Shown here piece after piece: positions 576 through 10,485 of a DNA stretch of 23,789 bases. The stretch lies in the UHGV virus genome UHGV-1460385. One strand, 5' to 3'. Every line of letters starts with the position of its first letter. Position 1 is the stretch's first letter. This stretch comes from a virus. The notes below the pieces were generated by a model. That model had not been told where the DNA came from and searched no databases. It was given only the letters and a program-made list of their open reading frames with translations. The position numbers were made by a program, and so were the translations under genes.

Positions 576-3263
576 CTATTCCACAACATCATCTTCTATC
601 AATTCAGCCTTATTTAGTTGTTCCTTAAGCTTATTCCATGCAGAATCCTCAGGCATCTGTACTCGCACAGAAACGAATTGATTAGCAGGAATGTCGATCG
701 GGTCACCGTTCGAAACACCAGGGATGTCGTTACGTGCAAAAACGGGCGAGTTATCATGAGTGCGGTGAAACGTTTTCACCAACACAGATCCATCTTGGTT
801 AACAACATAATCCAGCCAGATGAGCGGCTGCTTGTTTCGGTCCTGCGGTATTTCAAATCCACCATCAATCCCCCCCCATGAAGCATCTGCATTCAGACCT
901 ACGCAACCCTCAATCAGATATTCACCCAATGCCAGCCGTGTGACGGTTACCCCATCTGATTCGCGATTTGTTTCACTACTACCGTCTGAGAAAATCTTCA
1001 CAACCGGAGAGGCTTTTTTGATGAAACCACTTGAATCGACGGTCGTGTTCAGCGACGACCATGCCTCAGCCCAGCCTGTGTTACCTGCGCGAATAGCATC
1101 GTCTGCGTAGCGGAAGAACAGTTTTGATGTTGTGGACATGAATATCTGCAACACACGGTTTTTTGCATATCCTGACTCCCATAATGCTCCGTTACCTGTT
1201 CCTTCTGGCTGCCAGTTTGTCACCCCACCTGCAGCTCCTATACTTACACCAGTAGACCAGTCTCCAGCAAATTCTGGAAGATTTAGTGAGTTAGGTGAGC
1301 GAATTGATACATCAACCAGACCAGGGGATCCGAGAATCGACATGCTGCGGGAGGACACCTTAGTAAAAGAGTTGTACCCGCCGTTTTTGGAAATCCTTCC
1401 TGTATAATTATTAGCCCTGTTAGTTCCATTAACTGTAATTTCCCAGGTATCGCCGTTGATGAAGTCGATCTGCAATAGGCAGAATGCTGGCAGCGTCATC
1501 TGTCCTGGCGCAGATGGCCCACCTTCAAACAGTGGCATATCCTGTTCAAGATATGTCACATATCTACCTGCATCTGTATTCCGCAAATAGTCACAAATAG
1601 CCTGTGCCGATGTAAATAGCGCAATACCATCAGCCGGGTTTACAGGGTGACGGCCAGCGTTAATCACCCTTCCGCGAGGGTTAAATAACTGTGATGAGGC
1701 ATTGGATAGCGGAGTCATGTCTACTGTTCCAGGTTCATTAGATGGACAGTTAGCGCGAATGATGTTTAAAGTCCTATAATTTGATCCGCCCCCATTGTCA
1801 TAGCGAATAGACTGTAGAAGATACAATTCCTCAGAGCCAGAAATATCACAAGACTGCACCCCCTCATTTTCAGTGGAGTAAACACTCTTCCCTGAATAAC
1901 TATCCCAGTATGTTTTGAAATCTGCAGGTGACAGCAGGTACTGACCTAATTCTGAACCATTAAGGCTGTACTCAATATAACCCTGCAACCCTGCGAAAGT
2001 ATTTCCAGATCCCGCCGTGGTAGATGCACCAATACCAGCAAATATCCGTTGAGAACCAAGAGCGACACCCTGCCGTTTTGGTTTACCGGCTCCGCGACCT
2101 CCAACATTTGCATCAACCGTAATAGTCCCCATTGGACTGTAAGATCCTTCTATAAGGCTGTTAATATCCAGTGTGTTAAAGATATTGGATACACCTGTCT
2201 CAACATCAAAAATTTTCGGCCAACCCATATCCGCATTTTCGTATATCAGGGTATTACCAAAGCCACTAAACTGATATCGCACTCCAAGGCGTGTTGATTC
2301 AGTGAAGTTTGTAATCTGCGTTTTATCAACCAGCGTACGCGGATCTTCGATAGGGTAAATTCTGATAGTGCGAGATGGGCTGTACGGCAGCAGGATGTAA
2401 CGCTGTCCTGCCACTCGGTAAACGTGGATGCCTTCTGGTGCACCAACGTTATTCGGAAAATGAAGACGTGTTACCAATGCTCCTGTTACCCAGTCATGCA
2501 CCGTAACCCATACCGATGCGGGGTCTAGCGTCTGCCAGCCGATGTATACCATTCCATCATTGCTGTCTATGTAAATCCCCTGAAATCCCATGGTCGTGTA
2601 ACCATACTGATCTTTAAGATCTGCGGTAATCTCATCGTCTATGATGCTGAATTCTAATTTCCAGTTCAGCGGCCTACGCGTACCACTGACATGCCTAGAA
2701 ATATGAGACAGGTAGCTTTTAACCCCGCCTGCGATAATGTATCTATGTTTGATCTCAGTAACAATTCCAGTTGCAACTGGAGTGCATTTATAGACGCCGC
2801 CGTTTATTCTAATAAAATTGGTTCCTGTTAGATTATCCCCAATGGCAACGTCTTTTCTACTATTCTTAAACGTCCCATTACCTAAGTCAGTAACAAGCAA
2901 TGCCCCTTCTACATATTTCAATGACTGATCAGGGTCATACTTCAGCACATTAGGAAAATAGAACTGCTGCGCACCATACGCATCATAAACAGCCATAGAG
3001 TGGCCTTGCACAGTTACGAACTTGGCAATCTGTCCGTTATATACCGGGTAACCAGCAGCGTTAATGATTATTGGTTGCGAAACAGGAACGTGAGAACCGT
3101 CTTCATTCTCCACATAGACCTGAATCTGGTTTTCTGGATTTACAGGATCAGTGTCAATTTTACCGATATAAATTTTGCCATTGGCTACGGCTTTAAAAGA
3201 ACGCGCCATAGTGAAGAGTTGCGAAGGCATCGATACGATCACATTGGCTGTAATGTCTCTCAT
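576..3263 (-). CDS. Tailspike / receptor-binding protein (895 aa): P22-type N-terminal head-binding domain fused to a large non-P22 C-terminal body
   Basis: Residues 1-110 ([40 protein letters not shown]...[12 protein letters not shown]...NVLKYDPDQ) closely match my recollection of the P22 gp9 head-binding domain. The remaining ~780 aa do not resemble the P22 endorhamnosidase body. Last gene of the late operon, after ant, as in P22. ATG at 3263 with GGAG 9 nt upstream; TAG stop at 576-578. Confidence 0.9.
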
Positions 3264-3385: not shown

Positions 3386-4315
3386 TTAAAGTTTAATTGA
3401 GTGGCACGCTCTATCACGTATCGCTGCGAATGAAGCTATCTCTTTAAGTGCCCAGCTTTGCTCAGCCATTAAATGGCGAAGTGCTTTTAGTTCAGCTCTT
3501 ACTGCTGAAACGTCATACCCCGCTTTTGTCAGAATATTGATTAGTTTATACGCCGGACTGCATTCAACGAGTGCGCTGCGGTCAAGAGCAACAGTATCAC
3601 CGCATTGCTGCCTGATAATGGCGTAAGGTGCATTTTCAGCAAACCATGAAATCGGGAAGTTAATATCCAGTTTTGGCGCTGGTAACTCTTCTTGTTTGCC
3701 AATGAACTCACCTTCAAGCGGAACGCGAGCAGCAAGTGACAGTGCTTCGGTAAACTGCTCCTCACTGATTTCTTTGTACGAACATCCAAAATGGGATTTC
3801 AGTGACGACCACATGGTGATCATCGCCTTAGCCTGTTTTTCTTTTGGCAGAGACTGACCGCGACTCATGACGAGTTGTTTAATGGCTTCCTGCTGTTCAG
3901 TGGTAATTTTACTCGGCAACGCCTTTTTAGCTTTGCGTGGGTTAACTACATGACCTTTAGTCCAGTACTCGTAGAGCACATCGTCACACTCTTCCTGATA
4001 CTGGATTACCTTGTCGCGGATTTCAGGGCGGACTTTGTTTGGACTGATGGTTTGCAGCCAGCCAGCAAGTTTGCGAAGTGCCAAACAAATAATCTCACGG
4101 CACTGTTCATCACCAGGAAGCTGCATTGTGATTTTCACAATGGAGGTTTTAAACCGTTGCTTTATTTTCGTAAACTGTGAAGCCCAATCCATACCCATAC
4201 CTTCAACGATAGGTTTCATTGGGGTGTACGGCTCACCGTTGTGATTGACGACATAAAGCTCTGCGCCGTGGAATGGTACATTGATAGTAGATACTGCTGT
4301 TGCTATACTTTTCAT
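3386..4315 (-). CDS. ant: Antirepressor Ant (P22_AR-type N- and C-terminal domains), 309 aa from ATG 4315
   Basis: Position immediately upstream of the tailspike and downstream of arc, as in P22 immI; size near P22 Ant (300 aa). N-terminal VPFHGAELYVVNHNGEPYTPMKPIVEGMGMDW...QLPGDEQ resembles the P22 antirepressor N-domain family as I recall it. The ORF-track start at 4381 is TTG; the first ATG (4315) has AGGAAA 7 nt upstream. Confidence 0.7.
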   Translation of the reverse strand: MKSIATAVSTINVPFHGAELYVVNHNGEPYTPMKPIVEGMGMDWASQFTKIKQRFKTSIVKITMQLPGDEQCREIICLALRKLAGWLQTISPNKVRPEIRDKVIQYQEECDDVLYEYWTKGHVVNPRKAKKALPSKITTEQQEAIKQLVMSRGQSLPKEKQAKAMITMWSSLKSHFGCSYKEISEEQFTEALSLAARVPLEGEFIGKQEELPAPKLDINFPISWFAENAPYAIIRQQCGDTVALDRSALVECSPAYKLINILTKAGYDVSAVRAELKALRHLMAEQSWALKEIASFAAIRDRACHSIKL

Positions 4316-4390
4316 GTCAATATTTCCTAAGACGATTTGTTGATACCGAAGCCCTGACTGTTCCAGCAGTTGGGGCTTCAACGTTTTTCC
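4316..4390 (+). ncRNA. sar: sar-type antisense RNA candidate (~73 nt) covering the ant ribosome-binding site
   Basis: Plus-strand promoter -35 TTGATA (4281-4286), 17-bp spacer, -10 TATACT (4304-4309) with TGc extension. Predicted start near 4316, directly opposite the ant start codon. Ends at a long hairpin (GAAGCCC..ACTG-ttccag-CAGT..GGGCTTC, 4348-4379) followed by ACGTTTTT. Matches the known P22 sar arrangement; transcript not demonstrated. Confidence 0.5.
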
Positions 4391-4647
4391 ACTTCATTTT
4401 GAATTTGCTTAAGTAGCATATTTGTCTCGTCAAGCCTCTTGTTAATACGGTCAAGGCTTTCTACTAAATCGTTATGTGCATGTGATACTTCGTAATTTGA
4501 GACTGATTTCTTTTCCTCTATCGTCTTTGTCAATCGTTCCCCTGATTGATACATATTGATTAGCGCTGTAAAAATCACAAGCAAGCAAACCACAATGATT
4601 GCGCCAGACAAAAATTGTAAAGAACGATCAAGCAATGACACCCTCAT
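4378..4647 (-). CDS. Hypothetical 89-aa protein with one N-terminal transmembrane helix and a charged coiled-coil tail, between arc and ant
   Basis: ATG at 4647 overlaps the arc stop (ATGA). Predicted TM segment LSGAIIVVCLLVIFTALI followed by a heptad-like charged region. No family recognised. Confidence 0.5.
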   Translation of the reverse strand: MRVSLLDRSLQFLSGAIIVVCLLVIFTALINMYQSGERLTKTIEEKKSVSNYEVSHAHNDLVESLDRINKRLDETNMLLKQIQNEVEKR

Positions 4648-4802
4648 ACCATTACCCCCTCCCTCTTCAGGCTGTCCAATACTCGCTTGTAAATCTCAGA
4701 GTTAACAGATCGCTCATTCTCTTTGGCTACCTTGCGCACCAAATCCAATACTTCTTTAGGCATCCGCAAATTAAACTGCGGCATTTTTCTTGCACCTTGC
4801 AT
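4644..4802 (-). CDS. arc: Arc repressor (ribbon-helix-helix), 52 aa; below the 60-aa cutoff so absent from the ORF track
   Basis: Translation by hand: MQGARKMPQFNLRMPKEVLDLVRKVAKENERSVNSEIYKRVLDSLKREGVMV. This matches the P22 Arc sequence as I recall it (MKGMSKMPQFNLRWPREVLDLVRKVAEENGRSVNSEIYQRVMESFKKEGRIGA). GGAG 5 nt upstream of the ATG; TGA stop at 4644-4646. Confidence 0.85.
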   Translation of the reverse strand: MQGARKMPQFNLRMPKEVLDLVRKVAKENERSVNSEIYKRVLDSLKREGVMV

Positions 4803-4889: not shown

Positions 4890-5144
4890 ATGTCCAGAGA
4901 AGACCCACAATTTAAGTTGCGCCTTCCAGCAGAGTTAAAAGCAAAGTTAGACCAAAGGGCAAAAATGAATGGTCGGTCTATCAATTCTGAACTAGTTCAG
5001 ATCGTACAGAAGGCGTTATCTGAACCATCACCGATTGCAGGCTATCGAGACGAAGCTGAACGCTTGGCTGATCAGCAAGCAGAGCAGTTCAAGACTGTTG
5101 TGTTTGAGACACTTAAAAAGATTTATGGCAAGGATGATAAATAA
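4890..5144 (+). CDS. mnt: Mnt repressor (Arc/MetJ-family ribbon-helix-helix), 84 aa
   Basis: MSREDPQFKLRLPAELKAKLDQRAKMNGRSINSELVQIVQKALSEPSPIAGYRDEAERLADQQ... is near-colinear with the P22 Mnt sequence as I recall it (ARDDPHFNFRMPMEVREKLKFRAEANGRSMNSELLQIVQDALSKPSPVTGYRNDAERLADEQ...). Divergent from arc-ant across an operator. Confidence 0.85.
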   Translation: MSREDPQFKLRLPAELKAKLDQRAKMNGRSINSELVQIVQKALSEPSPIAGYRDEAERLADQQAEQFKTVVFETLKKIYGKDDK

Positions 5145-5680
5145 TGCTGCACACAATTCATTTCTTATGCCCCGTTAACACCGCCACTGTTGGGCAACTT
5201 CAGAACCACTGTCTCACCGCATTATCTCAAGGCGCAACTGAATTAAATATCCATATATCAAGTCAGGGAGGGGAAACAGCCGCTGGCTTTACTGCGTATA
5301 ACTTTCTTAAGTCACTCCCTGTTACCGTTAGAACTCACAACATAAGCAATGTTGAATCCATAGCTAATATCGTTTTCCTGGCTGGCTCAGAACGTTTCGC
5401 AAACCCATTATCAAGATTCCTGTTACATCCTCTATTATGGTGCTTTGCCTCCCCAGCCGCCGACCATGCCAGATTGAGAGAGTACGGGAAATGCCTCGAT
5501 AACGATCTTGATCGCTTCGTTGAGACGTTCAATATCGACATCGGAACCCATATTAGGTGGGCATCCCTGATAGCAGACTCGACCATTTTGGATGCTAACA
5601 AGGCTCTTGAGCATGGCATAATTAATTCCATAAAAACTGCAAGGCTGGTATCCAATCAGGCAAACTGGTGGGTTGTTTGA
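5144..5680 (+). CDS. Truncated ClpP-family (S14-like) serine protease, 178 aa, translationally coupled to mnt
   Basis: Start ATG overlaps the mnt TAA (TAATG). By-eye alignment to E. coli ClpP: NIHISSQGGETAAG vs YINSPGGVITAG; SNVESIANIVFLAG vs GQAASMGAFLLTAG (Ser); RFLLHPL vs RVMIHQPL (His); ILDANKALEHGII vs FLSAPEAVEYGLV with an upstream Asp. Ser-His-Asp spacing matches. The ~25 N-terminal residues of ClpP are absent. Confidence 0.75.
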   Translation: MLHTIHFLCPVNTATVGQLQNHCLTALSQGATELNIHISSQGGETAAGFTAYNFLKSLPVTVRTHNISNVESIANIVFLAGSERFANPLSRFLLHPLLWCFASPAADHARLREYGKCLDNDLDRFVETFNIDIGTHIRWASLIADSTILDANKALEHGIINSIKTARLVSNQANWWVV

Positions 5681-5736: not shown

Positions 5737-5958
5737 TTAGTTATCAAAAAGTCCGTACGTTTCTTCTTCTTCAGGTGTAAGGGGAAGAATCTCTACTCTA
5801 TCTATAGATACCTTTTCAATGTACCCATGAGGTCTACTTAAAATTAAAGCTCTCTCATGCCACAGAACTCCAAGAATGTGATACCTCCCAGCATCGCCTT
5901 TTACCCTGGCTCTTCCTTTGATTCTTGGCGGCATAATGCCATATTTTTTCTTTGCCAT
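5737..5958 (-). CDS. Hypothetical 73-aa protein, last gene of the minus-strand antirepressor operon
   Basis: ATG at 5958 overlaps the upstream TAA (TAATG); basic N-terminus, acidic C-terminus; followed by the terminator at 5705-5730. No family recognised. Confidence 0.45.
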   Translation of the reverse strand: MAKKKYGIMPPRIKGRARVKGDAGRYHILGVLWHERALILSRPHGYIEKVSIDRVEILPLTPEEEETYGLFDN

Positions 5959-6686
5959 TATGCAACATTACTCCCATGAATCAGGTGTTGTAGAGCTTTA
6001 ACACCTTCCGCATTGTAGCGGAATGCTTCCACCTGTTTGCTGGAATGTGCAGATTTATCCAGGAAGAACTTCCCGTACTGCTCAGTTTTGAGGTTGTTTG
6101 CGTTAGCAATGCGACCAATCTTGTTGGCCGTTACTCCAAGCTGCTCTGCAACCTCCCCTGCTGAGTAGTAATGCTCTTCTATTGCTGGAAGAGGTATTGC
6201 ATTAAAACCAACGATCGGGTTGATTATGCTTGCTGCCGCAGTCTGCTTTGCTTCCGGCGCAAGATTTGGCATCAAATCGAACAGATTGGTAACAGCTTCA
6301 ACCGTCATTTTCAATGTTCGCGCCTGGCGATACTCAACAAGTCCACTCGACGATTTACCGCTTTTAATGTGCGCTTCTTGCATACTTTCAAGTTGGTCTA
6401 CAAGTGAGCGGCGAACAGCTTTAGATTCACGAGCAGCCACTCGAAGGGCTTGCTTAATTGACATAACAACTTTTTCAGAAGTTGTCTTGTTTGATTTTTG
6501 AACTACGAAAATTTCGTAGTGCTCACCTTCAAGTTCATCCTTAATGCGTGCAATAAAGTCGTTATTTCGGACTTCTTTTTCCCCGCACTGTCTACGAGCA
6601 TGATTGACCATCTCTAACAGGTACTGGCTATCAATGGTTTTATCCGTGACAACGGATCCGATGTTTGCTACATTCTTAAAAGTCAT
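5958..6686 (-). CDS. Rha-like N-domain plus KilA-C-like C-domain protein (antirepressor-family regulator), 242 aa from ATG 6686
   Basis: N-terminal TIDSQYLLEMVNHARRQCGEKEVRNNDFIARIKDEL...HYEIFVVQKS resembles the Rha family. C-terminal YSAGEVAEQLGVTANKIGRIANANNLKTEQYGKFFLDKS resembles KilA-C-type antirepressor C-domains. AAGGA 7 nt upstream of ATG 6686; the track start at 6737 is GTG and would run through a terminator hairpin. Confidence 0.65.
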   Translation of the reverse strand: MTFKNVANIGSVVTDKTIDSQYLLEMVNHARRQCGEKEVRNNDFIARIKDELEGEHYEIFVVQKSNKTTSEKVVMSIKQALRVAARESKAVRRSLVDQLESMQEAHIKSGKSSSGLVEYRQARTLKMTVEAVTNLFDLMPNLAPEAKQTAAASIINPIVGFNAIPLPAIEEHYYSAGEVAEQLGVTANKIGRIANANNLKTEQYGKFFLDKSAHSSKQVEAFRYNAEGVKALQHLIHGSNVA

Positions 6687-6724
6687 TAGGCATTCCTTAT
6701 GTGGTAGTAAGGGTGTGACATAGG

Positions 6725-6755
6725 CCGCCAGCAGCACACTGGCGGTTTTCTTTTT
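6725..6755 (+). terminator. Orphan plus-strand intrinsic terminator in the Bro-N / Rha-like intercistronic gap
   Basis: CCGCCAG-cagcaca-CTGGCGG followed by TTTTCTTTTT. Canonical geometry. There is no annotated plus-strand gene upstream, so it would terminate an antisense transcript. Confidence 0.6.
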
Positions 6756-6774
6756 GCGCAGTCCGGCGCACCAA

Positions 6775-7401
6775 TCAATGAATCCATTCCTCGCCGCGAA
6801 GTTTTGCCAGCATTGGCTGAGCGTTCTTTACGACAAAATTGTTGGTATCAAGATTCTTCATTTCACGAAGAAGTGATTTCTTGGTTTCTTCTGACATGTA
6901 GCGAGTCTCATATGCAATATCGTAAATCCTTCCTGAAAGCTCAGAACCAATTTGCTTCATTCCTGGGTAGATGTGTTTGCACATTTGTTGACTCTTCTCC
7001 ATCCACAATTGTAAGTAGCAGAGATTAACCAGTTCTTCGTCAGTAAACTGTTTTGCAATCGGTGAGCATTCTGCCTGCCGATCCAAAATATCCAGCACCC
7101 AGCGGCGGAACTCTTTGGCTACCGGAGTGCGAGCAAACATCGCGATTAGGTGGGCACCGCGTAGTGAGAAAACTCGCACTTTTTTGCGATAATTTCCTGA
7201 GGTACTCACTTCGAGTACCTGAGTCATTCCGGCGCTAAACTCATCGCTATACTTGTTATAAATCATTGTTACTGCACGACTATTTGCGTATTTAAGTGCA
7301 GATGCAATATTAGATGATGTAAACCAAACACCATGCATATCACGGGTGGGCACCAACTCAACTCCGTGGAAGTTGTAATCTGATTTTGCTACAATATTCA
7401 T
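6775..7401 (-). CDS. Bro-N domain antirepressor-like protein, 208 aa from ATG 7401
   Basis: NFHGVELVPTRDMHGVWFTSSNIASALKYANSRAVTMIYNKY...KKVRVFSLRGAHLIAMFARTPVAKEFRRWVLDIL fits the Bro-N prophage antirepressor pattern. AGGAAA 6 nt upstream of ATG 7401; the track start at 7506 is TTG. Confidence 0.8.
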   Translation of the reverse strand: MNIVAKSDYNFHGVELVPTRDMHGVWFTSSNIASALKYANSRAVTMIYNKYSDEFSAGMTQVLEVSTSGNYRKKVRVFSLRGAHLIAMFARTPVAKEFRRWVLDILDRQAECSPIAKQFTDEELVNLCYLQLWMEKSQQMCKHIYPGMKQIGSELSGRIYDIAYETRYMSEETKKSLLREMKNLDTNNFVVKNAQPMLAKLRGEEWIH

Positions 7402-7476
7402 GTTAGTTTCCTTGCATACGGTTACTGACATAGAGGCCCGGTTTGTGTTCGCGCACTGCCGGGCTTCACTATTTTT
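7402..7476 (+). ncRNA. Second sar-like antisense RNA candidate, opposite the Bro-N gene start
   Basis: Extended -10 TGcTACAAT at 7387-7395 on the plus strand, ending 3 nt before the complement of the Bro-N ATG (same geometry as at ant). Hairpin GCCCGG..CCGGGC (7436-7464) followed by U-rich TTCACTATTTTTATT. Weak -35, and the U-tract is interrupted. Confidence 0.35.
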
Positions 7477-7648
7477 ATTGGATGACAACATCGCCCTTTG
7501 CCTCAAGTTTCATCAATAACTCCATTCGATAAGCTATCTCTGCCTGAATTGACCTATGGCATCTTTTTGCTGATTCGCGGATATGTGAATCAACCTTTTC
7601 TGTAAAACGAACCTGACGCGGCTTGATGGAAGATATCTTTTCAGTCAT
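7475..7648 (-). CDS. Arc-like ribbon-helix-helix regulator, 57 aa; absent from the ORF track
   Basis: Translation by hand: MTEKISSIKPRQVRFTEKVDSHIRESAKRCHRSIQAEIAYRMELLMKLEAKGDVVIQ. Pattern of beta-strand (RQVRFTEKV) then two helices with RS-I-EI motif is typical of Arc/CopG. GGAG 6 nt upstream of ATG 7648; TAA at 7475-7477. Confidence 0.7.
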   Translation of the reverse strand: MTEKISSIKPRQVRFTEKVDSHIRESAKRCHRSIQAEIAYRMELLMKLEAKGDVVIQ

Positions 7649-7697
7649 TATGCACTCCTGTTTTTAAAAAACTCATAATCTCACTTTTTGTAGTTTG

Positions 7698-7726
7698 ATT
7701 ATTCACTCACACTCAGCATGAGTCAA
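7698..7726 (-). promoter_or_regulatory. Pant-like promoter for the Arc-like / Bro-N operon
   Basis: Minus strand -35 TTGACT (7726-7721), 17-bp spacer containing tandem CACTCA repeats, -10 AATAAT (7703-7698). Confidence 0.4.
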
Positions 7727-7747
7727 TGAATTTTTTATGGTGAACTA

Positions 7748-8389
7748 ATGAATTTTGACGATCAATTCCCATCAAGAGTATCTCTGGCAAGACAGTCCAG
7801 GGGTATGACGCAGGCGCAGTTGTCAAAATTAGCTGGTGTTGTTCAACGTCAAATAGCTGCATACGAGGGTGGTGAGGCTAAACCACGGCTTCGGGTATTG
7901 CAGGCATTAGCCAACGCATTAGGTACTACAGCTGAGTGGTTAGCTCTAGGTGAAGGTCAGGGTCCGGGAACAAAAAACGTCATGCCTGACGTTCTGGTAA
8001 AGCAAATACCAATCCTCAAACTAGATGAAGTTATGCATTACCTAAACACAGGTGAACATTCATCGTCTAGATTTCATCCGGCAATATACAATGTTGGTGA
8101 CTCTGCATTTGCATTGACTATTGAAGGTGAAGCTATGACTACAAGTTCAGGTATTAGCTTTCCCAGAGGATCGGTTGTCACGTTCAGCCCTCTAGTAAAA
8201 GCTAAAAGCAAAGATTATGTAATAGCATCATTGGATAAAGAGCAAATATTGAGCTTCAAACAGGTTTACATTGGTGAAATAGAGACAAACCTAGTATCCC
8301 TAAACCCAATGTATCCTAATATTCTTGTTAGAAATGAAGATGTTAGTATTTTGGCAACCGCAGTTTACCTTGAAATCCCGTTGCTTTGA
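7748..8389 (+). CDS. Lambda-CI/LexA-fold repressor (HTH plus S24-like C-domain) with Ala at the nucleophile position
   Basis: N-terminal Cro/C1-type HTH (MTQAQLSKLAGVVQRQIAAYEGGEAKP). C-domain aligns with lambda CI: FALTIEGEAM vs FWLDVQGDSM (Ser to Ala, codon GCT), LSFKQV vs ATFKKL (Lys kept), LNPMYPNI vs LNPQYPMI. Confidence 0.85.
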   Translation: MNFDDQFPSRVSLARQSRGMTQAQLSKLAGVVQRQIAAYEGGEAKPRLRVLQALANALGTTAEWLALGEGQGPGTKNVMPDVLVKQIPILKLDEVMHYLNTGEHSSSRFHPAIYNVGDSAFALTIEGEAMTTSSGISFPRGSVVTFSPLVKAKSKDYVIASLDKEQILSFKQVYIGEIETNLVSLNPMYPNILVRNEDVSILATAVYLEIPLL

Positions 8390-8655: not shown

Positions 8656-10485
8656 TCACTGCTGTGTTGCCTCAGTGGCAAGCAGCGGTCTGATGGCATT
8701 TGCAGCGTTACTTAATGCTCTTTCATAGGCTGGCGTTCCTGCTTTGGTGTTTGCCAAACGTAAGAGAGCATTCCTTGCTGCTTTTGACTCATACAAGCGC
8801 ATCATTGCACCGAAACCAGCCTCAAGCCCCATTGATACGCCAAGAGTCGCAGTTGCGCCAATCGTCCTTATCCTGTTGGCTTGCGATTGTCCTGTCTGTG
8901 TTACTACATTTGCGGCGTCCGACCTTGCTGTTTGCTGTAGAACTTCATGAAGAGCATCAAGCTCTTTCATGTGTCTCCCACTGAATATCGTGTTATAGAT
9001 CTGACCGTCAGATTGCGACTTCAACTTATTTAACTCGGTAAGAAATTTTGTTGGCGAGTCTCCTGCTTTTTCTGCAATCTTGCTGATATAAGCAGCACGC
9101 ATAGCGTTCTTTCCATCTTCACTAAGAGCTGGCCATATCCTCTTAATATCTGATGGTTTTCTGCTGAATACAACACTGTTTATTAGCTCTGGAGTAAACT
9201 CTTTTTTAGCTTTGTTGAGATTATTCGCAATCCTTTTATTAAGAACCTTATTGAAGACGTTAGAGTAGTCAGAGTTTGCCTTGACGTATCTGGCGGCCTC
9301 TCCAGCCCCCAAATACCGCGCTGCGTTATTCCTCAAATCTGCCCCCATTGCCCTCTCCACGGTATCAGTTGCGGCTTTCGCGCTATTAGGAAAAACCATG
9401 GCATCTCCCTGAATACTTTCCCTCAAGGCTGACCGCAACTCTCTCAATAGACCAAAATCTATATCTGGTTTAGCAAGTTCTTCTCGCAAATCGGATAACC
9501 CGCGAATCAAATCCTTATTTGCCACTTTCCCAAGCCTATTAGCTCTGGTAAGTACGTTGTCGATAACCTTAATAGATTTTGATGTGTCAACTGGTGTGTC
9601 TCCCATTTTGGCTGTAATGTCTTCAATAACGCTTCCGGCCGAATCCTTCCTTGACTTCAGAGAACCATACAGATCGTCAACAACAACTGATGGGCTATAT
9701 TCACCATATTTCTCAAGCTGTTTTTTAACTAGCTGACTTCTTTTTGCATACTGCTCAGCTCGCTTTGAGCCTGTCCCGAGCAAAGCCCCCTCGGCATCCT
9801 GAGTTAGGCCGCGAGTGAAAGCATTTTTCGGCGGGATAACATCAGATGTCATTGGTGTCACGCCCATCGATTCTGAGGTGGCAATTTTTTTCGCTACTTC
9901 TGGCGCGATATCGCCTTTTATAGCCGTTATTCCACGCCCTATTCCCTTTGCTGCTGCGGAAAGAACACCCTGAGCAGCAAGGTTAACTCCGGCGTTTATG
10001 GCTGCATTTTGCGCGAAATCGCCTTTCTGGTTTGCGGCTTCTGCCAGTGATCCAATAGCCATGCTTCCTGCAGTTCCAACTCCTGGAACTAAATACCCGC
10101 CAATTGTTTCTCCAGCTTGCGCATAAGGGTCTGTTGGTCGATCTACTGGACGATAGACATCGTCCAAAACCTTGTGACCACCAAGCCCCTGGCTGATTGC
10201 ATTAATCAGACTTGCGCCACCCTGCAATACGTCAAATGGTATGTTTACCAGACCACGACCAGCCTGTTCTGCAATTTGCCCTGCACTTTGACCACCAGTG
10301 AGCCAATCGCCAGCTTGTTGCATCAATGATGGTTCTTCCTGTGTTGGTGCATTATTGGCCTGATTAACTGTTTGTTGCTGAACAGCCTGACCAGCAAAAT
10401 ACTCATCAATGGCGGTGCCAATATCTTCGGTGCTCGTACCATCAGGAAAGGTAAATGTCTTACCGTTTGCAGTTACTTTCATCAT
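8656..10485 (-). CDS. 16: Ejection (internal virion) protein gp16, 609 aa
   Basis: Same length as P22 gp16 and N-terminus [16 protein letters not shown] as I recall it; last of the three ejection-protein genes. ATGA overlap with gp20. Confidence 0.9.

Follow-up and report, generated by a model that had tools for sequence, protein, structure and literature searches.

A probable sar-family cis-antisense RNA gene opposite the start of a Bro-N antirepressor gene in a P22-like prophage

The question raised by the locus studied here is whether the start of a phage antirepressor gene is guarded by an antisense RNA of the kind known from phage P22. The gene encodes a 208-amino-acid (aa) Bro-N + P22AR_C antirepressor (6775-7401, minus strand; domains from Pfam; PHROG 245 'anti-repressor Ant', E-value 2e-53) and lies in UHGV-1460385, a viral genome stretch of 23,789 nucleotides (nt). 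This whole stretch, hereafter the window, represents a P22-like prophage (Lederbergvirus-type) whose late genes lie on the minus strand, and coordinates refer to it unless another locus is named. In P22, the small RNA sar attaches to the ant gene's ribosome-binding site and blocks the synthesis of Ant (PMC10732415, PMC13397905), and both its mechanism and its expression have been documented (PMC10732415, PMC13397905, PMC2629481). A first-pass annotation of the window had proposed that a second sar-like antisense unit faces the Bro-N gene, and the analysis conducted here bears this proposal out: the element shares the fold layout of sar, is recognized at 57 bits by a model of other sar-type RNAs, and presents covarying helices and a conserved promoter. 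We consider it probable that 7367-7479 (+), which we call unit 3, is a divergent cis-antisense RNA gene of the P22 sar family that keeps the Bro-N antirepressor off. Judged by its sequence, unit 3 is an unannotated, diverged member of that family, and it extends a known mechanism instead of representing a new kind of element.

The geometry on which the proposal was based, with a -10 element ending 3 nt before the complement of the start codon, some 35 nt from there to a GC hairpin and a U-rich tail behind it, can be read directly from the sequence in every detail. An extended -10, TGcTACAAT (TGCTACAAT; 7387-7395, +), lies within Bro-N codons 3-5 (I-V-A) and is directly followed by ATT and then by CAT at 7399-7401, the complement of the Bro-N ATG. 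A weak -35-like hexamer, TGGAAG (7367-7372, +), stands 17 base pairs (bp) upstream of the -10. The sar-like antisense RNA predicted from this promoter (7402-7476, +; about 72-75 nt) would have G7402, 7 nt past the -10, as its first base and end in the U-run. Its 5' hairpin (7402-7429, +; stem 7402-7407/7424-7429) carries in the loop an anti-Shine-Dalgarno sequence, UUUCCUU (7407-7413), that is complementary to the Bro-N ribosome-binding site AAGGAAA, and a linker of 3 nt separates it from the 3' terminator hairpin (7433-7467, +). The latter is made of a 10-bp outer stem (7433-7442/7458-7467), a UU bulge, a 4-bp inner stem (7445-7448/7453-7456) and a UCGC loop; the GCCCGG of the outer stem (7436-7441) lies 34 nt past CAT and its partner CCGGGC occupies 7459-7464. 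The terminator tail, ACUAUUUUUAUU (7468-7479, +), has its U5 at 7472-7476 and overlaps the stop codon (7475-7477) of the upstream gene, which encodes a 57-aa protein, so that unit 3 fills the 7402-7474 intercistronic gap. The predicted RNA is perfectly complementary to the leader, the Shine-Dalgarno sequence and the start codon of the Bro-N mRNA.

The predicted RNA folds with an energy of -33.3 kcal/mol (z = -6.2), and the classical sar unit resident in the same prophage with -28.3 kcal/mol (z = -5.3). Their layouts agree: the 5' hairpin has 6 bp and holds the anti-Shine-Dalgarno sequence in its loop, and a short linker leads to a long terminator hairpin, from which 4 nt separate the final U5. 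The 3' hairpin of unit 3 aligns with the sar terminator (GArGCCC..UGUUCnnGCA..GGGCUUC), and its 5' stem, GUUAGU/ACUGAC, is a single G-U to A-U change away from the GUUGGU/ACUGAC of P22 sar (sequence from PMC13397905). Homology is further supported by R2, a covariance model built on 48 sar-type sequences of other phages that contains no unit-3-type sequence and none from the window. This model matches unit 3 full-length at 7399-7477 (57 bits, E-value 1.3e-12, model positions 1-77 of 77); within the window it scores the resident sar at 90.9 bits and its best unrelated match at 12 bits.

Two pattern scans of IMG/VR, based only on parts of the 3' hairpin, yielded about 230 contigs with 69 distinct RNAs, and all 69 show the succession of CAT, 5' hairpin, linker and terminator. 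The resulting family is a continuum, in which the existence of intermediate forms ties unit 3 to classical sar: loci L125, L162 and L191 join a sar-like 5' hairpin to a unit-3-like 3' hairpin. The targets of its members are antirepressors of several families, with Bro-N-type genes paired with classical sar hairpins in L056, L063 and phage SPN3UB, and a P22_AR_N ant gene paired with a unit-3 RNA in L005. The first-pass annotation had proposed covariation of the hairpins across homologues as a check, and in a covariance-model alignment of 72 distinct sequences both helices do covary. Paired cells reach 92%, versus 83% in shuffles, and the covariation score is 0.285, versus 0.137 in shuffles (none of 500 reaches the observed value) and 0.02-0.095 after sliding of the partners. 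The 5' helix is free of any constraint from the retrieval pattern, and five of its six pairs have changed on both sides. The unit-3 clade itself contains two independent G-C to A-U compensations in the stem, in L005 and L134, and its substitutions fall in loops. When 38 family sequences were processed with MAFFT and RNAalifold only the 3' hairpin was recovered, because the 5' hairpin was misaligned; covariance-model alignments were used instead.

A second line of evidence comes from the coding sequence of the targets. The family maintains a TG-n-TAnAnT element ending 3 nt from CAT, with a (T/G)(T/G)GAA -35-like element 17 bp further up. Read on the target strand, the reverse complement of TGc-TAnAnT constitutes codons 3-5: 43 of 49 sequences have AnT (S, I or N) as codon 3, as many (43/49) have nTA (GTA, ATA or TTA, for V, I or L) as codon 4, the rare ATA codon included, and the codon for Ala5 is GCA in 34 out of 35. 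The promoter nucleotides are thus fixed while the amino acids vary, which argues for selection on nucleotides and not on protein. The first-pass annotation had also noticed that the word TTGCTAyAnT is common to three units of the window, and this word is now understood as the extended -10 (TGc-TAnAnT) read through target codons 3-5. The same overlap accounts for an N-terminal peptide, M-x-(S/I/N)-(V/I/L)-A, that is common to unrelated antirepressor families and is found in the window at 7387-7401 and 4301-4315 as well as family-wide. The positioning of the promoter was evaluated on 231 viral contigs retrieved with the hairpin-only pattern (4.37 megabases, counting both strands). TGnTAnnnT occupies the expected 26-nt slot at 79 of 99 distinct hairpin loci, versus a background expectation of 1.9%, an enrichment of about 40-fold, and 130 of 188 TTGCTAYANT matches lie 30-55 nt upstream of a hairpin, so that the notion of a motif equally frequent at random positions in related genomes can be rejected.

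Several observations weigh against this interpretation and have to be set beside it. The -35 of unit 3 is poor (3/6 matches to the consensus), 4 nt separate the U-run from the terminator stem, and a simple terminator scan of the window did not report the unit 3 hairpin, since that scan disallows internal loops. The Rfam sar model gives no match at 7399-7477, either at its gathering score (43 bits) or at an E-value of up to 10, in a permissive scan that covered 6550-7750; the best Rfam match to unit 3 is symR, at 21.8 bits (E-value 0.22), far below the gathering score of 61. Identity to P22 sar is only 62%, to be compared with a mean of 49% and a maximum of 60.5% in shuffles. The covariation figures come from sequences in which the retrieval pattern had fixed most of the 3' stem and from a model-fitted alignment, both of which favour structure, and many of the family sequences are related, so their counts are not counts of independent events. 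Constraint on the mRNA leader itself could explain part of the conservation. Finally, the arrangement is only modestly unlikely when the window is taken alone. TTGCTAYANT occurs exactly three times in it (4300, 6665 and 7386), always on the plus strand and opposite the start of an antirepressor-type gene, where 0.57 occurrences are expected, and at least three occurrences are seen in 4 of 100 shuffles. The composite of extended -10, hairpin (dG <= -14) and U-run, the last two 45-110 nt past the -10, is found on either strand of the window only at the three antirepressor loci, and in shuffles it has a mean of 0.61, with 4 of 160 reaching three. As these within-window tests are only marginal, the case rests on other genomes.

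It is precisely the other genomes that make it hard to credit a chance meeting of an A/T-rich -10-like word with a GC hairpin near a start codon, an explanation that would draw its strength from those same shuffles and that we regard as very remote: the unit is 95-100% conserved in 70 of 5,426 complete Escherichia coli genomes, it is detected by the leave-out model R2 at an E-value of about 1e-12, and the promoter word is enriched some 40-fold in its expected slot. A more substantial alternative holds that the hairpins matter solely in the sense mRNA, as a leader structure affecting Bro-N translation, stability or processing by RNases, that no antisense RNA is made, and that the -10 is a by-product of a conserved N-terminal peptide. 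The mRNA strand can indeed form mirror hairpins with the Shine-Dalgarno sequence in a loop, and the antisense RNA is a prediction from sequence with a weak -35. The two strands are far from equivalent, however. The minus strand folds to only -19.5 kcal/mol (z = -1.9), versus the -33.3 kcal/mol (z = -6.2) of the plus strand, because four G-U pairs turn into A-C mismatches, and this difference in stability indicates that the structure has been selected on the antisense strand. Throughout the family G-U pairs, which would be A-C on the mRNA strand, occur frequently, and a U-tract follows the hairpin on the plus strand only. The fixation of promoter nucleotides despite varying amino acids, the use of the rare ATA codon included, is likewise at odds with a peptide-driven -10, and the homologous P22 element is a proven transcript. 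We therefore consider a purely sense-strand role unlikely.

Another possibility is that the hairpin, placed between the 57-aa gene and Bro-N, serves mainly to terminate or attenuate transcription, or as a recombination linker, and owes its conservation to module shuffling. In mosaic phages short conserved stretches often mark the borders of modules, and in several phages the breakpoints fall exactly at the edges of the hairpin unit. Yet what follows the hairpin on the minus strand is UCUAUGUCAGU and no U-tract, and a linker would need neither a covarying 5' hairpin nor an anti-Shine-Dalgarno loop nor a positioned extended -10, so that this explanation appears quite improbable to us.

Under the preferred reading of unit 3 as a sar-family gene, an RNA of about 72-75 nt would be made from the extended -10 in Bro-N codons 3-5 and would end at the intrinsic terminator that separates the 57-aa gene from Bro-N. 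Its 5' hairpin loop would present the anti-Shine-Dalgarno sequence, and the RNA would pair with the leader, the ribosome-binding site and the start codon of the Bro-N mRNA, blocking translation initiation as expected by homology with sar. By this analogy, the predicted RNA most likely represses Bro-N translation. A leftward sigma-70-like promoter (TTGACT-17-AATAAT; 7698-7726, minus strand), from which the 57-aa gene, Bro-N and the genes downstream would be transcribed, points towards the sar-like promoter, and because of this convergence transcription from the two probably interferes. Liao et al. reportedly described in 1987 that in P22 Psar stays suppressed by Pant transcription up to the point at which Arc turns Pant off, and a P22-like Pant/Psar interplay is plausible at unit 3.

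The specificity of the system can be approached through pairing energies. The cognate duplex of unit 3 is predicted at -153 kcal/mol, versus -47 to -54 kcal/mol for its non-cognate duplexes. For all three RNAs of the window, namely unit 3, the resident sar and the unit described next, cognate duplexes range from about -140 to -153 kcal/mol and non-cognate ones from -27 to -54 kcal/mol, with most of the non-cognate energy coming from terminator arms that are locked in hairpins. Since the pairing regions of the three RNAs differ, each of them should control only its own antirepressor.

The remaining antisense-type unit of the window, termed 'Rha-like' in the first-pass annotation and unit 2 here (6646-6757, +), faces a gene for a 242-aa antirepressor of PHROG 1726. 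It combines the promoter GTGACA-17-TGcTACATT with a terminator at 6722-6748 and a U tail; the terminator reads GGCCGCCAG..CTGGCGG, followed by U-rich sequence, and CAT stands 9 nt after the -10. Promoter and terminator are kept in 35 homologous, distinct loci whose proteins are as little as about 70% identical, and in these loci unrelated DNA starts directly after the U-run. Units 2 and 3 have the linker UGACAUAG in common. Models R1 and R2 both fail to detect unit 2 (6681-6757), even at an E-value of up to 10 with filters off, and homology of all three units is consequently not claimed. Unit 2 is probably an antisense RNA gene that is analogous, but not demonstrably homologous, to sar. The first-pass annotation had considered that a single mechanism controls all three genes, and unit 2, which shares the geometry, would work alike.

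The first-pass annotation had alternatively suggested that the control element was duplicated along with the antirepressor genes. The three targets turn out to be unrelated (P22_AR_N, Bro-N/P22AR_C and PHROG 1726), and comparison with other phages speaks against a duplication in situ. In phage JEP4 and in L003, identity is about 45-55% across 7100-7365 and rises to 95-100% from about 7366 (7381-7460 covered); L002 matches at about 100% as far as about 7481, past which the two are unrelated; in L005, a lambdoid prophage, only the RNA body matches (7421-7460, at 92%). SPN3UB has kept the promoter and the Bro-N gene next to a different sar allele, which places its breakpoint at the start codon. 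Recombination breakpoints in other phages coincide with the edges of unit 3, and the RNA body, the N-terminal codons that bear the promoter and the gene bodies recombine independently between phages. The gene set around unit 3 is a separate mobile cassette (5737-8389), composed of an S24 repressor gene, the 57-aa gene, the RNA, Bro-N, the 242-aa gene and a 73-aa gene. It is also found in STEC299 (L240), in the prophage of E. coli HS (L239), a laboratory strain whose copy is 99% identical, and in phage JEP4 (L001). STEC299 is a myovirus-type prophage that carries the cassette between genes for tail and baseplate, with an unchanged order of flanking genes and with 100% identity over a 501-nt query spanning unit 3 (7250-7750).

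The unit-3 allele, at 95-100% conservation, is present in about 1.3% of complete E. coli genomes (70/5,426), and classical sar in 536. No RNA feature is listed at either type of sar in the RefSeq records and tables examined. Two further arrangements were observed among these loci. The lambdoid prophage L005 has a related arc-ant-RNA set between the tail genes L and K, and in L003 (840-2053; E. coli O111:H- strain 110512) the IS3-family element IS1203 splits the Bro-N/P22AR_C gene, with the upstream sar-like unit left 95% intact.

Set against the antisense systems already described, unit 3 is closest to P22 sar (RF00262; Liao et al. 1987, Wu et al. 1987 and Schaefer & McClure 1997, as cited in PMC2629481 and PMC10732415). 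Like sar, it runs cis-antisense to an antirepressor gene at the latter's 5' end, over the ribosome-binding site and start codon. Its promoter lies in the first target codons, and 3 nt separate the end of the -10 from the start-codon complement, a spacing shared by the resident sar. Its predicted start is the base after CAT, and its predicted RNA of about 70 nt comprises two hairpins, an anti-Shine-Dalgarno loop followed by a GArGCCC...UGUUCnnGCA...GGGCUUC terminator, with the stop codon of the upstream small gene in the terminator tail. It differs from sar in its sequence (about 62% identity, missed by the Rfam model), in a longer 3' hairpin with a UU bulge, in targeting Bro-N/P22AR_C and not the P22_AR_N Ant, and in its company: the upstream small protein is no recognizable Arc, a CI/LexA-type S24 repressor takes the place of Mnt, and a classical sar coexists with it in one prophage.

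The SymR RNA of E. coli (RF01809; Kawano, Aravind & Storz 2007, as cited in PMC5415839) is also a cis-antisense RNA, of 77 nt, that begins beside the start-codon complement of its target and forms two hairpins, and the apex of its 3' hairpin, GUGUUGGCGCAC, resembles the GUGUUCGCGCAC of unit 3. Unlike unit 3, SymR lies outside a phage immunity module and its target is a toxin-like protein and not an antirepressor. An assignment of unit 3 to SymR was considered and dismissed, given that the symR model reaches it with only 21.8 of the 61 bits required. The reverse search, with R2 on the 5-kilobase symE/symR region of K-12, returned symR (L340, 3836-3912) as the top match, at a non-significant 10.4 bits (E-value 0.32), which is suggestive only. 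The c4 RNAs of P1/P7 and the CA RNA of N15 are same-strand RNAs that are processed upstream of their target and act on short repeated sites; they are not known to be antisense to a start codon. They too are small RNAs that hold down an antirepressor post-transcriptionally or by attenuation (the CA RNA of N15 is cited in PMC10732415). Rfam scans of the window, and permissively of 6550-7750, gave no match to C4.

Beyond antirepressors, a related two-hairpin RNA is present in P4-like satellite and integrative elements, where it faces small Icd-like open reading frames (ORFs) at their start codon ('agCCAT'). This class comprises L004 (2465-2547), L136-L140, L154, L193, L223, L232, L234 and L241-L259, and its hosts are E. 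coli, Erwinia, Serratia, Yersinia, Xenorhabdus, Photorhabdus, Buttiauxella, Cedecea and Dechloromonas. Its RNAs score 39-59 bits with R1, and the Rfam symR model reaches 34.8 bits (E-value 1e-4) on L004. When one-genome-per-species contigs were scanned, the exact unit-3 pattern gave no match, and a looser hairpin pattern gave 19 loci, mostly of the P4-like class. These data hint at a superfamily linking sar, the P4-like RNAs and perhaps SymR. It is tempting, if speculative, to go one step further and regard sar as the best-known member of a large superfamily of recombining cis-antisense cassettes, each with an extended -10 in codons 3-5, an exchangeable 5' hairpin that sets specificity and a conserved GArGCCC..GUGUUCnnGCAC..GGGCUUC terminator, which would guard the start codons of several unrelated antirepressor families, of the Icd-like ORFs that P4-like satellites carry in Enterobacterales and even Dechloromonas, and perhaps of symE. 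If this were true, recombination that swaps alleles at start codon and terminator would equip antirepressor modules residing in one prophage with RNA locks that do not cross-react, which would explain how one prophage can hold two or three cassettes.

Antirepressors decide the induction of their own or of a neighbouring prophage. As three antirepressor-type genes of the window are each faced by their own antisense unit, it is probably at translation, and separately for each gene, that the output of antirepressor is gated. A 2008 survey of P22-like 'ant morons' noted that the E. coli HS version has no arc and that its control mechanism must differ from that of P22 (PMC2629481); the presence of unit 3 suggests that the HS-type ant moron has retained the antisense layer of P22, which revises the earlier view. 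More generally, the sar family, as delineated by these sequences, is much broader and more modular than its Rfam entry implies. The Rfam model misses the unit-3 subfamily; if it were broadened, hundreds of enterobacterial prophages would gain a regulator in their annotation.

The ant moron of the window is enlarged and consists of two modules, placed between a gene-16 homologue (8656-10485) and the tailspike gene (576-3263). In the module that contains unit 3 (module B), the RNA has a position equivalent to the arc-ant gap of immI, but its neighbours are different. In the position of mnt, and divergent from the leftward operon, it has a CI/LexA-type repressor gene with HTH_3 and Peptidase_S24 domains (7748-8389, +). 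The -10 of the leftward promoter overlaps inverted repeats at 7675-7702, a possible operator. Should the repressor be capable of RecA-mediated autocleavage, release of the antirepressor could be tied to the SOS response. The position of arc is taken by the 57-aa gene (7475-7648, minus strand; PHROG 10182, unknown function), whose product is probably a ribbon-helix-helix protein with weak domain matches (ParD_like, E-value 8e-4; TprA, 0.009; AmrZ 3qoq, 0.8). BLASTP found no similarity between it and the Arc-family protein at the same position in L002. Its earlier description as 'Arc-like' draws on these weak matches, and the protein is no recognizable Arc. The leftward operon continues through Bro-N with the 242-aa gene (5958-6686, minus strand) and the 73-aa gene (5737-5958, minus strand).

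Module A contains the classical immI genes mnt (4890-5144, +), arc (4644-4793, minus strand) and ant, of the P22_AR_N type (3386-4315, minus strand), along with the resident classical sar unit (4281-4389, +), which has the promoter TTGATA-17-TGcTATACT, an RNA at 4317-4383 and a score of 66.2 bits with RF00262. An 89-aa ORF with a hydrophobic N-terminal half (4378-4647, minus strand; PHROG 27312, unknown function) is inserted between arc and ant, and its stop codon falls within the 3' arm of the sar terminator, which puts the resident sar in the gap between this ORF and ant and not in the arc-ant gap. Directly 3' of mnt, and overlapping its stop codon, lies a gene for a ClpP-like serine protease (5144-5680, +; Pfam CLP_protease, E-value 2e-11), an unusual passenger of immI.

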